DNA of 64,000 nt, taken from contig CAVUVW010000014.1 in the NCBI GenBank assembly GCA_963745035.1, positions 288,001 through 352,000 of the forward strand, in the 5' to 3' direction. The translations under genes were made by a program, and so were the position numbers. This document shows, in pieces, positions 2,131 through 5,128 of this stretch. The number at the start of each line of letters is the position of its first letter. Within the stretch, counting starts at the first letter, position 1. The notes under the pieces are model-generated. The model did no database searches and was not told where the DNA came from. It worked only from the letters and a program-made list of their open reading frames with translations. This DNA comes from an uncultured delta proteobacterium (lineage in GTDB: Bacteria > Desulfobacterota > Binatia > UBA9968).

Positions 2131-2946
2131 ATGGCCGGCTCCCCACAGAATGCGCTGTTCCTCGGCGGATCGATCCGGACGCCGCTCGGCGTGCAAACGC
2201 TTACGCTACTCCTGGTGATCGCCGTCTGGGAAATCATCGGCCGCACCGGCATTCTCTTCGCCGAGCTGTTTCCACCACTCGTCGAAATCCTCCAATCGCT
2301 TTGGCGCTACCTGACGACGCCGATAATTCTGCCGCACTTGCGGGCCAGTCTCTACGAAGTCGGCGGCGCGCTCGCGCTCGCAGCGCTTTCCGGCATTCCC
2401 TTGGGGATTCTCTGGGGCAGCCGGAAAAGCTGGCTGGAAATCGTCGAGCCGCTGATTCTTTATGCAGCGGTGGTCCCCAAGATCGTGATCTTTCCGGTGT
2501 TCATTCTCTTCTTGGGCATCGACGTTCACTCCAAGCTCGCCGTCGGCGCCATCGCCGCATTCTTTCCCATCTCGCTGTTGACGATCGCCGGCATGCGCGA
2601 GGTCAAGAAAGTCTATATCGACGTGGCGCGCACCGCCGGCGCCAACGCCTATCAAATCGCCACGCGCGTTTATCTGCCGGCCATCGCCGGGCAGGTTTTC
2701 ACGGGCATTCGCATCGGCATGGGCGCGGCAGTGACCGGCGCGCTCTTGGCCGAAACCAAGATCGCCAAAGCCGGGCTTGGCTTCATGATCGTTGAATACT
2801 ACGGCCAGTTCCGCATCGCCGACATGTACTCTTTATTGCTTTTTATTTTTATCCTGGCCGCCCTGGCCAATTGGGCGATGAAGGCTTTGTTTGCCCGGCT
2901 ATCGCCGAGCGCGCGCGCCGCTCAGGATGCCGCAATGTACTTCTAA
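2131..2946 (+). CDS. ABC transporter permease (SsuC/TauC-like)
   Basis: TM segments, YIDVARTAGANAYQIATRVYLPA loop; ATG 2 nt after the upstream stop. Confidence 0.9.
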   Translation: MAGSPQNALFLGGSIRTPLGVQTLTLLLVIAVWEIIGRTGILFAELFPPLVEILQSLWRYLTTPIILPHLRASLYEVGGALALAALSGIPLGILWGSRKSWLEIVEPLILYAAVVPKIVIFPVFILFLGIDVHSKLAVGAIAAFFPISLLTIAGMREVKKVYIDVARTAGANAYQIATRVYLPAIAGQVFTGIRIGMGAAVTGALLAETKIAKAGLGFMIVEYYGQFRIADMYSLLLFIFILAALANWAMKALFARLSPSARAAQDAAMYF

Positions 2947-2960
2947 CGATCGAGCGCACT

Positions 2961-3734
2961 ATGAAAGAGCTTTTCATCATGCTGCGCCAGCGCCTGGGCA
3001 CCACGCGAATCGCGCGCCGGCTTTATCGTCTGCTACCGTCGGGCAAACGCTGCAAGGAATGCCTCGTGCCGTTTCTCGGGCTCTGCTCCTTGCCGTTTCG
3101 TCTGTTACAGATCCGCCCGTCGCGGAAGAATCCCAACCTCTGCACGCTTTGATACGAGCTGGCTCCTCCGGGCGGGGAGACGCTCAACATTTCGATTTTG
3201 TTCGCCGATATCCGCGGCTTTACCGCCTTCGCCGAACAGCTCCATCCCGCGGACGTGGCGGCGCGACTCAATCGTTTCTACGAGCTTGCTTCGCGGGCGA
3301 TCTTTCGCCGCGACGGCACCCTCGACAAGCTCGTCGGCGATCAGGTCATGGCATTTTTCGGTGCGCCCATTGGCCGCGATGATCATGCCGGGCGAGCGGT
3401 GGCAACCGCGCGAGAGATCATGCGCGCTCTCGCCGCGCCGGAGGCGGGAGAGCGCTTGAGCGTCGGCATCGGTATCTCCACCGGCGAAGCGTTTGTCGGC
3501 AACGTCGGCGGCGGCGAGGTGGCCGACTACACCGTGCTCGGCGACACGGTGAACGTCGCCGCGCGGCTGCAAGGCGAGGCGGCATCCGGCGAAATTCTTG
3601 TATCGCACGAAACCTATGCGCGGGTCGCGACGGAATTTCCCTATGCGAAACGCCGCGAGCTCTTGCTCAAGGGCAAAAGCGAGCCGGTGATCGCCTGGGA
3701 GATCATGCGAGACGCGCTGCGGCGCGGTAGGTAG
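2961..3734 (+). CDS. Putative selenoprotein: class III adenylate cyclase with N-terminal CxxC...CxxU domain (257 aa, U64)
   Basis: ORFs 2871..3152 and 3198..3734 share a frame and are separated only by TGA 3150-3152 (NPNLCTL-U-YELAPPGG); cyclase motifs FADIRGFT, DKLVGDQVMA, GDTVNVAARL. Confidence 0.85.
3153..3185 (+). promoter_or_regulatory. Bacterial SECIS-like hairpin (cyclase)
   Basis: GAGC/GCTC lower stem, CTCCTC/GGGGAG upper stem, loop CGGGC starting 17 nt after UGA. Confidence 0.65.
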
Positions 3735-3827
3735 CTAGCGTGATAGGGCGTTTCATGGGGATTAAGCACCTTCACCACGAAGGTGCGAAGGACAGGCGGT
3801 GGTTGAGTTTTTTAACCGGAAAGAGAA

Positions 3828-3896
3828 AGATTTCTCACTTCGTTCGAAATCACAGCGTCTACTATTGTTGTCATTCCGAACAGATGTGAGGAATCT
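3828..3896. repeat. REP-like inverted doublet
   Basis: AGATTTCTCACTTCGTTCGAAATCACA pairs imperfectly with TGTCATTCCGAACAGATGTGAGGAATCT. Confidence 0.65.
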
Positions 3897-3919
3897 ATCC
3901 GGAGGCTTTCATTATTTTG

Positions 3920-3952
3920 TCGGCGAGCGTAAGCTCATGAATCACTTCGTGG
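3920..3952 (-). repeat. 33-bp dispersed repeat (copy 2, inverted)
   Basis: Exact reverse complement of 1042-1074. Confidence 0.9.
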
Positions 3953-4029
3953 TTGGGGTAACCTTGGTTGACACCGCTGATCGCTCTCAATTAGTGTGAA
4001 ACTATCGCCCGGCGCAAAGGAGAAATCCT

Positions 4030-5128
4030 ATGGAAAATAACAAGGATCTCGTGATCGATGCCGATGCTCACGTCGTCGAGTGCGCGCGCACGTGGGAGTT
4101 TATGGATCCGTCCGAGGAGCGCTACCGGCCCATCCCGCTCGAAACCCGCGAGGAGGCGGGTGTCCGGCTTCAGTTCTGGGTGATCGACGGCAAAGTCAAA
4201 GGGTTTCGCTTCCCGGCTTTCTCTGCTGACGAGCTGGCCAAGCGCGCCCAACAAGTCGGCCGCAAGTTTGCCGACGCGCAGGAGGCGCGCGAGCTGGGCA
4301 ACGTCGATCTGCGGTTGGAGCACATGGACGAGACCGGCGTCGACGTGCAGGTGCTGCACAACACGATGTTTATCGAATCCGCCACCGATCGGGCCGCAGT
4401 CGAAGTCGCGTTGTGCAAGAGTTGGAACCGCTGGCTGGCCGATATCTGGAAGCGCGGAAAGGGACGGCTCCGCTGGTCCTGCATGGCGCCGACGCTCAGC
4501 ATGCCGGACGCCCTCGATCAGATTCGCTGGTCGCAGGAAAACGGCGCGTGCGCGGTTCTGCTTGCGCCCGATCGAAGGTCAGCGTTTGCTCGCCGATCCG
4601 TATTTTTATCCGATTTATGACGAAGCGCAGAAACTCGACATGCCGATCGCGATTCATATCGCCAACGGCAATCCGTGGCTGACCGACTTGTATAACCATC
4701 CCGTGCGCATCGCCTCGACCTTTCATCGCTTCAGAATCCCCACCGTAGGGGCATTCAATGACATCATCATGAGCGAGATCCACGACGTTTTTCCCAAGCT
4801 GCGCTTCGGCTTCATCGAAGCGAGCGCCCAATGGCTGCCCTGGGTGATGCATGAAGCGAGAAATCGTTTCAAAACGCTCGGCAGGAAGTGGCCGGAAAAC
4901 GCGATCCACGAGTTTGGCATGTATGTCACCTGTGAAAATTCCGATGACATTGCATACATCGCGCGCGAAGCCGGCGAAGATTGTCTCGTCATAGGCACCG
5001 ACTACGGCCATACCGATACTTCCAGCGACGTCGATGCGATCAAGACTTTTCGCGCAAGAAGCGATCTTTCCGGCGCGGTAAAGCAGAAAATTTTAAGCGA
5101 TAACGCCCGAGCGCTCTACGCGCTGTAA
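4030..5128 (+). CDS. Amidohydrolase family protein (Amidohydro_2), frameshift near 4560
   Basis: VIDADAHVVE, IAIH, FGFIEA, GTDYGH motifs across two overlapping frames. Confidence 0.85.

Follow-up and report, generated by a model that had tools for sequence, protein, structure and literature searches.

Within the window, a 64,000-nucleotide stretch of DNA from an uncultured delta proteobacterium, a short cysteine-rich reading frame runs into the frame of a nucleotidyl cyclase with a single TGA between the two. The locus therefore raises the question of whether this TGA ends a small peptide, or whether it is read as selenocysteine (Sec) within one longer protein and, if so, what Sec would be doing in an enzyme that makes a second messenger.

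The reading frame and its TGA

The gene and its immediate surroundings are laid out as follows.

2149-2946, + strand: gene for an ABC permease upstream, with its end 15 nt ahead of the cyclase start
2961-3734, + strand: predicted selenoprotein cyclase coding sequence, complete, with ATG at 2961 and TAG at 3732-3734; 257 residues including U64
3150-3152, + strand: TGA as the predicted Sec codon (U64), kept in orthologues and matched by Cys in Cys-form loci

ATG 2961-2963 opens a 63-codon stretch (M-K-E-L ... N-P-N-L-C-T-L) that is stopped by the TGA at 3150-3152. Past this codon the same frame is free of stops up to TAG 3732-3734, so that reading through the TGA would yield 257 residues, and the TGA is the sole interruption of the frame from ATG 2961 to TAG 3734. 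An earlier, sequence-only reading of this DNA had described just such an arrangement, in which a 63-residue Cys-rich frame and a cyclase share one frame, parted by a TGA that completes a CxxC/CxxU pattern and is followed by a hairpin with the loop CGGGC. That observation is real and is confirmed here. Its remark that the cyclase part alone has only a weak TTG start also holds, as the single table-11 ORF for this part begins at TTG 3198, with D83 of the motif F-A-D-I-R-G-F-T following three codons later.

The genome uses TGA as a normal stop codon, at the end of 104 of 213 long frames. The letters at 3150-3152, on which the whole reading turns, are the same in two independent DNA assemblies that cover them without a listed difference (X1 record 1, 2600-3553; X6 record 22, 2799-3181), although one of these two runs may be the source sample. 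Furthermore, an RNA-library contig (X16 record 9, 2994-3229) spans the TGA and carries it intact, and the RNA runs X16 and X17 give partial cover of the cyclase gene (8/30 and 9/30 bins, respectively).

Conservation of the TGA and its exchange with cysteine

The TGA is found at the exact column in 80/80 related metagenome loci or contigs, at 59-81% identity; the patterns used for this metagenome scan carried no bias to TGA, one of them demanding Cys at the TGA site. It is also kept in all 74 unique full-length orthologues (pairwise identity 54-100%), the alignments of which span residues 1-257 with one TGA within, as well as in the 11 genome loci showing the motif and at each of the ten best places across 61 related genomes. 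Homologues of other lineages carry an R-C-x-x-C ... S-R-K-N-P-x-x-C-x-x-C module, and the TGA column falls on the fourth of its invariant Cys. For example, Cys stands opposite the TGA in ten longer homologues (225-267 aa) of alignment A1, and 21 of the 22 module-bearing genome loci have Cys and one has TGA, the Cys codon at the residue-64 column of these 21 Cys-form loci being TGC in 14 and TGT in 7. The expectation that homologues would show either Cys or a conserved TGA at residue 64 is thus borne out twice over, with Cys in full-length homologues and a TGA that is conserved, not replaced, in orthologues. Sec is found at none of the remaining three Cys (C31, C34 and C61), either in the 74 orthologues or in alignment A2.

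These comparisons bear directly on the suggestion that the gene is a pseudogene, or that a TGC or TGT has been misread as TGA. A neighbouring gene in the same assembly has a one-base frameshift and degraded copies occur in two relatives (L011 and L016), both of which would fit such an origin. However, amino-acid conservation in the orthologue alignment is strong on either side of the TGA, and the explanation is effectively refuted by the TGA in 80/80 independent metagenome contigs, in 74/74 orthologues and in the two further assemblies over the window.

A different proposal is that the TGA is a true stop between two genes, one for a 63-residue Cys-rich peptide and the other for a cyclase of about 178 residues with a start of its own. 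This is how gene callers annotate the family: 110 of the best 120 database matches are 157-197 aa long and align to just 60-74% of the read-through length, proteins of 46-92 aa in eleven clusters terminate just ahead of the TGA, and a GTG or ATG is present at codons 76-80 in a subset of orthologues. Gene callers split any Sec-TGA gene into two pieces, however, and as such the two database pieces are no sign of a true gene split. The frame is retained across the TGA in all orthologues and the TGA lies opposite an invariant Cys. Moreover, no conserved start codon was found downstream of it in 72 unique sequences. The first in-frame ATG, GTG or TTG past the TGA is codon 67 in 18 of these and lies within strand beta-1 (codons 76-84) in 44, and the other 10 have it no earlier than codon 90 or lack it; in the window's gene this first start, TTG 3198, would remove most of beta-1. 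The earlier reading had named homologues that are always split into two genes as evidence against itself, a situation that does not apply given the lack of a conserved downstream start. Frozen synonymous sites in a SECIS-like hairpin, restricted to the TGA-forms and described below, also speak against a true stop, which we regard as very improbable.

A SECIS-like hairpin and the decoding machinery

3156-3185, + strand: SECIS-like hairpin with a conserved core stem (3163-3168 / 3174-3179) and the apical loop CGGGC (3169-3173)

The hairpin that follows the TGA has the form CUCCUC/CGGGC/GGGGAG at 3163-3179, with a loop starting at the 17th base after the TGA, and a lower stem (3156-3159 / 3182-3185) that is peculiar to the window's gene. 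The criteria quoted in PMC13188914 for bacterial SECIS elements are a UGA-to-apical-loop distance of 16-37 nt, a G in the first two loop positions and a minimum free energy (MFE) of at most -7.5 kcal/mol. Here, 16 nt separate the UGA from the loop, the loop CGGGC has G in second place followed by another G, and the MFE comes to -14.3 kcal/mol over 41 nt and -8.1 kcal/mol over the core, all within the quoted ranges. The stability of the hairpin is unremarkable by itself (z = +0.56 for an 81-nt fold; z = 0.08 for the 24-nt core); for the 41-nt piece from the UGA z is -2.0, with 6/200 shuffles equally good. A search of Rfam over 2900-4100 gave no relevant match.

Synonymous sites were compared by normalised synonymous codon entropy, which has a mean of 0.718 over 151 conserved columns in the 74 unique orthologues. 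Codons 68-73 (A-P-P-G-G-E) have a synonymous diversity of 0.136, the lowest of any 6-column window of the gene, and their sole variation is CCU/CCC, which exchanges a U.G for a C-G pair in the stem, and GGC/GGU in the loop. The corresponding P, G, G and E codons show ordinary variation in the 21 Cys-form loci, at 0.52-0.83 against a mean of 0.58, and are not frozen. The hairpin, with its frozen synonymous sites, is SECIS-like, as the earlier reading had assumed. A SECIS hairpin within codons 68-73 would direct decoding of the UGA as Sec.

The machinery for such decoding, proposed earlier as a check, is present in the genome. The genes selA (523 bits), selB (347 bits) and selD (385 bits) and a tRNA-Sec(tca) are all located on contig C17, and selD itself contains a Sec-TGA, at G-U-A-A-K. 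This SelA/SelB/SelD/tRNA-Sec system would decode the UGA at 3150-3152. On the strength of these sequence comparisons we predict, with high confidence, that TGA 3150-3152 is the Sec codon of a genuine Sec-containing cyclase, and the reading of Sec in the CxxU of a cyclase is supported, with all of the earlier reading's proposed checks that were run pointing the same way.

Domain organisation of the predicted protein

3033-3170, + strand: N-terminal Cys/Sec module, about residues 25-70 (alignment A2, 34 sequences)
3051-3062, + strand: first knuckle, C31-K-E-C34 (sequence and A2)
3141-3152, + strand: second knuckle (C61-T-L-U64), located where the predicted helix 62-67 has its N-terminus
3186-3683, + strand: class III nucleotidyl cyclase catalytic domain, residues 76-241 (PF00211, E 1.8e-25)

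The catalytic domain is matched by PF00211 with 90 bits against a curated cut-off of 21.9 (residues 76-241). In alignments A1 and A2, D83, D127, K123, T191 and N198 are invariant and R202 is present in at least 90% of rows; we take D83 and D127 to serve the metal, K123 and T191 the base, and N198 and R202 the transition state. The Lys of DKLVGD (K123), which had been read as indicating ATP specificity, is present and has T191 as its partner, and this Lys/Thr pair, with Thr and not Asp at the second position, presumably marks the class IIIb (CyaC/CyaB/soluble-AC-like) ATP-specific subtype. A profile search of the PDB matched CyaC and CyaB (E 3.9e-38 and 3.7e-35, respectively). Similarly, Foldseek matched CyaC chains with E about 3e-19, a target-normalised TM of 0.80-0.87 and 38-39% identity, the values for chain 1wc3_B being E 3.3e-19 and a target-normalised TM of 0.83. 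We predict a product of 257 residues, a soluble adenylate cyclase of class III (Lys/Thr, class IIIb-like) in which no catalytic residue is missing and which presumably acts as a dimer, as we assume for cyclases of this family.

Ahead of this domain, C31, C34, C61 and C/U64 are invariant in 34/34 sequences of A2 and form two CxxC knuckles, within a set of invariant module residues made up of P26, R30, C31, C34, P37, G40, S54, K56, P58, C61, U/C64 and P69. The AF2 model has a pLDDT of 89.4, and of about 90 over residues 21-60, with C61-x-x-U64 at the N-terminus of a helix. The module sits eight residues ahead of strand beta-1, which bears the first catalytic Asp. Searches of family databases returned no match to the module in NCBIfam and none in Pfam, where PF00211 was the only family at E <= 1 for the read-through protein. 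Neither by sequence nor by fold did the module match known zinc-finger or redox families, or known zinc-ribbon, treble-clef and rubredoxin-type Cys4 domains, and positions 1-61 of the A2 profile matched no solved structure by sequence. A protein-atlas search with the N-terminal module of the natural Cys-form P0005 gave 'hypothetical protein' clusters only (scores 0.85 and 0.75, below the lead level of 0.9), and no paper describing the module was found in the literature on Cys-rich N-terminal domains of class III cyclases.

Proposed mechanism

In the mechanism that we propose, C31, C34, C61 and U64 would bind a metal, probably Zn. Oxidants would turn C61/U64 into a selenenylsulfide with subsequent loss of the metal, and the short linker to beta-1 would alter the geometry of the catalytic dimer and with it the cAMP output. 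Sec would make the switch faster and readily reversible. Provided that the cyclase genuinely contains Sec, we hold a zinc/redox switch on cAMP synthesis to be close to an even call, leaning a little to the doubtful side. The broader role of a sensor, as a redox or metal switch that gates cAMP, is one that we infer.

The same Sec-containing cyclase could instead sense soft metals or metalloids (Hg, Cd, Cu, As), with Sec as a high-affinity ligand and metal binding, not oxidation, switching cAMP synthesis. Four invariant Cys/Sec residues in two knuckles are consistent with this, and so is the description in a recent review of several recently found selenoproteins in which Sec may act as a metal-binding ligand, many of them tied to heavy-metal or metalloid resistance, along with the metal-binding selenoproteins with UxxU and CU motifs included in its Table 1 (PMC13188914). 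However, no metal-resistance gene adjoins the cyclase gene, the neighbours of which are an NMT1-type ABC transporter (permease) and an amidohydrolase that are common to the closest orthologues only, and the four-Cys module is widespread in Actinomycetota. Soft-metal sensing is in our view unlikely.

It could also be argued that the module of the Sec-containing cyclase is a purely structural metal site or a dimerisation element, and that Sec mainly couples cAMP signalling to selenium supply. Full-length synthesis from any Sec-UGA depends on selenium supply and on SelB, and the four-Cys module is constant in every branch of the family, membrane-anchored paralogues included, as would suit a structural site. 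Independent Cys-to-Sec exchange at one column in at least three lineages is hard to square with an inert ligand, though, and so is the absence of Sec from the other three Cys. We therefore consider a purely structural role quite improbable. The best overall explanation, and one that we judge probable, is a Sec-decoded class III cyclase with a metal-binding module that would act as a redox switch.

Distribution and origin of the Sec form

On a 63-row tree, the Sec label requires at least three changes, at least two of which are forced by well-supported branches, and the Cys-form family is a sister clade with 99% support. Repeated Cys-to-Sec exchange at a single column has reportedly been described, in the title of a paper, for redox-active Cys. 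In a further group of paralogues (C-x-x-D ... C-N-R-U) a separate hairpin is present, one pair of which is compensatory; all 36 of 36 cells are paired in this group-2 hairpin, and with 4 sequences its covariation is indistinguishable from that of shuffles (249/500). Soil and rhizosphere metagenomes contain the gene family in abundance. In a phylum-wide sample 0/300 other genomes matched at E <= 1e-44, so that within this sample the family is seldom found beyond family f1. One Sec-form (the TGA-form at locus L060) belongs to a cultured Chloroflexota strain with a complete genome, which makes the question accessible to experiment.

We tentatively suggest, as a proposal somewhat more likely to fail than to hold, that the cyclase is the first case of a selenoprotein taking part in second-messenger signalling, in which a selenolate in a Cys3-Sec metal/redox switch would directly gate a class III adenylate cyclase. 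Starting from an all-Cys form, this arrangement would have evolved on three or more occasions, namely in two paralogue groups of Binatia-like soil bacteria and in SAR202 Chloroflexota of marine origin.

Significance

To our knowledge, nearly all described prokaryotic selenoproteins are oxidoreductases or take part in metal handling. Sec in the regulatory module of a cAMP synthase would bring selenium biology into signal transduction, and would mark a widespread uncharacterised Cys4 module of bacterial cyclases, those of mycobacteria among them, as chemically reactive, which gives a testable functional hypothesis. If this is true, bacterial cAMP would report exposure to oxidants (or soft metals) with selenium-grade sensitivity, and signalling would also be tied to selenium supply. 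In public protein databases the family is stored as truncated cyclases of ~178 aa and orphan peptides of ~65 aa, and because these entries are truncated or split at the TGA, censuses of domain architecture miss the module.

Comparison with known systems

Cys-form members of the family, for example from Mycolicibacterium chlorophenolicum, Mycobacterium asiaticum, Solirubrobacterales, Sneathiella and Chloroflexota MAGs, are alike in architecture and invariant residues at 42-60% identity, but have TGC or TGT in place of TGA and hairpin codons that are not frozen. The catalytic domain resembles those of CyaC from Spirulina platensis (1wc0 to 1wc6) and CyaB from Pseudomonas aeruginosa (3r5g), with equal Lys/Thr, Asp/Asp and Asn/Arg positions in the alignment, whereas the N-terminal regions of these two enzymes are different and contain neither the Cys4 module nor Sec. 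The zinc-thiolate switches Hsp33 and the anti-sigma factor RsrA follow the same logic as proposed here, in that oxidation of a Cys-rich Zn site frees the metal and alters activity; we know of none with Sec or in control of a cyclase.

Table 1 of a 2026 review (PMC13188914) covers 119 prokaryotic selenoprotein families and subfamilies without a nucleotide cyclase among them, and none was found among described selenoproteins in the main texts of the papers covered. This agrees with the sequence-only reading, which suspected that such families include no cyclase. The same table gives two small proteins as predicted selenoproteins, namely an FmdB-family putative regulatory protein (TIGR02605, UxxU) and a 'dual CXXC motif small protein' (NF041197) (PMC13188914). 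Both are alike in that Sec belongs to a knuckle of CxxC type within a small non-Trx module, which is rich in Cys and presumably binds metal, and neither is among the NCBIfam matches at E <= 1; unlike the window's cyclase, they are stand-alone proteins with no enzyme fusion. Canonical genes with a SECIS inside the ORF, such as fdhF and selD, share with the present gene a UGA opposite the Cys of homologues, the 16-nt spacing, a small G-containing apical loop and the SelA/SelB/SelD/tRNA-Sec set. In contrast to their products, the protein predicted here is a second-messenger synthase and not an oxidoreductase, and its Sec would lie outside the catalytic domain.

Gene structure and reading frame

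The sequence-only reading described two coding parts in one frame separated by a single TGA, and this arrangement is upheld.

2961 to 3734, plus strand: cyclase gene, ATG 2961 to TAG 3732-3734, one frame whose sole interruption is TGA 3150-3152

From the ATG, 63 codons ending in N-P-N-L-C-T-L lead to the TGA, from which the frame remains open to the TAG, giving a read-through product of 257 residues. The cyclase part had been credited with only a weak start of its own, and the only table 11 start available to it is TTG 3198, which lies three codons upstream of the first metal-binding Asp. Across 72 unique sequences no independent start (first in-frame ATG, GTG or TTG) is conserved after the TGA: it falls at codon 67 in 18, at codons 76-84, within strand beta-1, in 44, and at codon 90 at the earliest, or nowhere within 49 codons, in 10. 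TGA is an ordinary stop in this genome, ending 104 of 213 long open frames on the first six contigs, and is not reassigned as a sense codon; true termination at 3150-3152 is nearly excluded, with a very small probability. The codon itself withstood the read check that had been proposed, as assemblies of two DNA runs from separate studies cover it without any listed difference; one of the runs may be the source sample. An RNA-library contig (2994-3229) reads across the unchanged TGA; libraries of this kind can include DNA. A sequencing error or pseudogene is also nearly excluded, its probability being close to nil.

Cysteine and predicted selenocysteine at residue 64

Among the 120 best database relatives, ten (225-267 aa) cover 81-96% of the read-through protein, and 110 (157-197 aa) cover 60-74% and therefore begin after the TGA. 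Selenocysteine (Sec, U) had been proposed at residue 64, and in protein alignment A1 precisely that column holds Cys in the ten longer proteins, in the context R-C-K-x-C ... S-R-K-N-P-x-x-C-T-x-C-Y-E-x-A-P-P-G-G-E; five short proteins in A1 start at (M/L)-A-P-P-G-G-E. The N-terminal module (about residues 25-70) occurs in 22 of 80 loci from named genomes, once with TGA (Candidatus Lucifugimonas marina JH545) and 21 times with Cys (Mycobacteriaceae, Solirubrobacterales, other Actinomycetota and Sneathiella). C31, C34, C61 and C/U64 are invariant in a 34-sequence alignment.

A TGA occurs in all ten best places of 61 related genomes (59-100% identity, own genome included), and C-T-L-TGA-Y-E-L-A-P-P-G-G recurs in eleven genome loci. 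TGA stands at this column in 80/80 metagenome loci (59-81% identity), 78 recognised by pattern match and two, with Y-Q-L for Y-E-L, read by eye; since one search pattern demanded Cys at that site, the scan carried no bias in favour of TGA. After removal of incomplete and duplicate sequences, TGA was found in 74/74 unique full-length orthologues with pairwise identities of 54-100% (median 69%). One locus from an unpublished genome (L004, in G005) contributes a single row to the related-genome, orthologue and tree counts, and the conclusions do not depend on it.

Selenocysteine machinery

A check of the genome for the Sec machinery had been proposed, and the complete set was found.

Contig C17, 315468-319742, outside the window: selA, selB and selD, side by side
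Contig C17, 371273-371367, outside the window: tRNA-Sec(tca), 52 kb from selA-selB-selD

The matches score 523 bits for selA, 347 bits plus a C-terminal piece for selB, and 385 bits for selD, itself a selenoprotein with a TGA in frame at the canonical G-U-A-A-K site. Of the 61 related genomes, 56 have a strong SelA match (E ≤ 1e-100), among them eight of the nine other genomes in which the TGA orthologue occurs. The predicted signature of UGA recoding as Sec at 3150-3152 is supported by these comparisons.

Hairpin and codon constraint

The hairpin noticed after the TGA is present at 3163-3179, with its loop CGGGC at 3169-3173. In the bacterial SECIS model as quoted in a 2026 review (PMC13188914), the apical loop lies 16-37 nt from the UGA, the MFE is ≤ -7.5 kcal/mol, and one of the first two loop bases is a G, after which G or U often comes next. 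The hairpin agrees with this model in its spacing of 16 nt, its loop C-G-G-G-C and its MFE of -14.3 kcal/mol (41 nt from the UGA) or -8.1 (core); Rfam returned nothing matching it. Its stability is ordinary for its composition (z = +0.56 over 81 nt and 0.08 for the 24-nt core), which, like the missing Rfam match, weighs against the Sec reading; only the 41-nt piece from the UGA reaches z = -2.0.

Normalised synonymous codon entropy, taken over the 151 columns whose amino acid is conserved, has a mean of 0.718 and falls to 0.136 at codons 68-73 (A-P-P-G-G-E), the lowest six-column window of the gene. Codons there vary in two ways only: CCU/CCC, where the pair stays U.G or C-G, and GGC/GGU, in the loop. 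The corresponding codons (Pro, Gly, Gly and Glu) of 21 Cys-form genes have entropies of 0.52-0.83 against a mean of 0.58, varying like the rest of the gene, so the freeze is specific to the TGA-forms. Two further points weigh against the Sec reading: codons for P-P-G-G are inherently self-complementary, and the Cys-forms too conserve this motif at the protein level.

Catalytic domain

Residues 76-241: class III adenylate/guanylate cyclase catalytic domain PF00211, Pfam E 1.8e-25

This is the only Pfam domain in the read-through product, for which NCBIfam holds no specific model. By profile search the domain is nearest the soluble cyclases CyaB (3r5g, E 3.9e-38) and CyaC (1wc0, E 3.7e-35), and Foldseek places the AF2 model (pLDDT 89.4, pTM 0.86) nearest CyaC 1wc3_B (E 3.3e-19, target TM 0.83, 39% identity). 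D83, D127, K123, T191 and N198 are invariant and R202 nearly so; in the literature on the family these are the two metal-binding Asp (D83, D127), the ATP-specifying Lys/Thr pair of class IIIb (K123/T191) and the transition-state Asn and Arg (N198, R202). Since the catalytic residues are kept, an active homodimeric adenylate cyclase is expected.

N-terminal module

Residues 1-75 have no Pfam match at E up to 1, and the module is unlike described zinc-finger or redox families both by sequence (Pfam, NCBIfam) and by fold. In the full-length model, where residues 21-60 have a pLDDT of about 90, a knuckle C31-x-x-C34 is followed by a helix (41-48), and C61-x-x-U64 lies at the N-terminal end of helix 62-67. 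Between U64 and strand 73-84, on which D83 sits, there are only eight residues.

When the 58-residue module was searched against 1.84 billion cluster representatives, 168 clusters matched at E up to 0.001. Eleven of 18 fetched module proteins, 46-92 aa long with varied C-x-x endings, stop exactly one residue before the Sec column and are further TGA-forms. Eight of ten longer matches scanned have a cyclase domain, in one case together with a cNMP-binding and Crp HTH region, the other two being without a Pfam match, and the module therefore looks cyclase-specific.

One Cys-form protein, P0156 (498 aa), joins module and cyclase to a cyclic-nucleotide-binding domain and a Crp-type HTH, and is predicted to be cAMP synthase and receptor in one. 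The window's own genome has two all-Cys paralogues (C13:1140251-1141396, 381 codons; C14:882326-883552, a 408-codon open frame), both with the same module, the cyclase and a hydrophobic C-terminal extension that looks membrane-anchored.

Evolution of the TGA-forms

A maximum-likelihood tree (quick method) was built from 63 rows, 19 Sec and 44 Cys; L013, L031, L020, L206, L015, L017, L025 and L030 are absent because the extraction pattern missed these eight rows. The cyclase of the window belongs to a clade of 17 rows, all Sec, whose sister group is mostly Cys; a clade of 27 with 99% support encloses both. At least three changes of the Sec label are required, namely in the main clade, in L202, which sits among Cys-forms, and in Lucifugimonas; well-supported branches force at least two of them. 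The sequence evidence supports recurrent Cys/Sec exchange at a single column, the other three Cys staying the same throughout.

Related genomes hold a second TGA cyclase paralogue group, off the tree, with C-L-A-D ... C-N-R-TGA and thus Asp for the second Cys.

L013, 1609-1653: second-group member
L031, 1244-1288: second-group member
L020, 1565-1609, minus strand: second-group member
L206, 397-441: second-group member

The group has its own, different downstream hairpin with loop GGC, 36/36 cells paired and one compensatory A-U / G-U / G-C series, statistically indistinguishable from shuffles with four sequences. In the complete chromosome of Candidatus Lucifugimonas marina JH545, a cultured Chloroflexota whose genome has SelA (434 bits), TGA stands at the same column as C-N-Y-TGA (L060:3001-3654); the protein has His in place of transition-state Arg202, and the MFE hairpin has loop CACC, an alternative register by eye giving a GGU loop.

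Two degraded copies were also seen, one frameshifted with an extra TAA (L011) and one with two TGA and two TAG (L016, in G029). SelA was not found in the 92% complete genome carrying the former (G027), and both may reflect decay after loss of Sec decoding.

Surroundings of the gene

A dispersed intergenic repeat of about 130 nt (3822-3955) follows the cyclase gene, with 22-50 blastn matches per position in its own genome and no Rfam match; in three of four runs the contig depth summed over it is very high. Compared with the intact orthologues in L005 and L137, the downstream Amidohydro_2 gene (4030-5128) has one surplus T near 4562 that splits it into two overlapping frames, through either misassembly or a frameshift that arose recently.

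Proposed mechanism and comparison with known selenoproteins

According to the title of one study, bacterial Sec evolves from redox-active Cys (PMC1794560). The exchanged position 64 is probably chemically reactive, and a metal-thiolate/selenolate redox switch is therefore the favoured reading of the module, at somewhat under even probability. Oxidation would form a C61-U64 selenenylsulfide, a change that the short linker would relay to the catalytic dimer. The same knuckle and C-x-x-U pair could belong to a soft-metal sensor, which is rather unlikely, or the site could be structural, with Sec mainly coupling cyclase synthesis to Se supply, which is less likely again.

The suggestion that no cyclase is among described selenoproteins held for the literature searched, which comprised main texts. 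The word "cyclase" is absent from the main texts of the prokaryotic selenoproteome papers searched and from Table 1 (119 families and subfamilies) in PMC13188914, and no cyclase appears in the main text of BSepDB (PMC13326102) or among the nine new families of deep-Sep (PMC12013277). Searches on selenocysteine with adenylate or adenylyl cyclase returned unrelated papers only, and those on Binatia with selenocysteine returned none. The closest precedents among the listed selenoproteins are small and Cys-rich, namely the FmdB family (UxxU) and a dual-CXXC small protein; the read-through cyclase matches neither (NCBIfam). The predicted Sec decoding is canonical, as is the cyclase; their combination, which would place Sec in a regulatory module of a signalling enzyme, did not turn up in the main texts searched.
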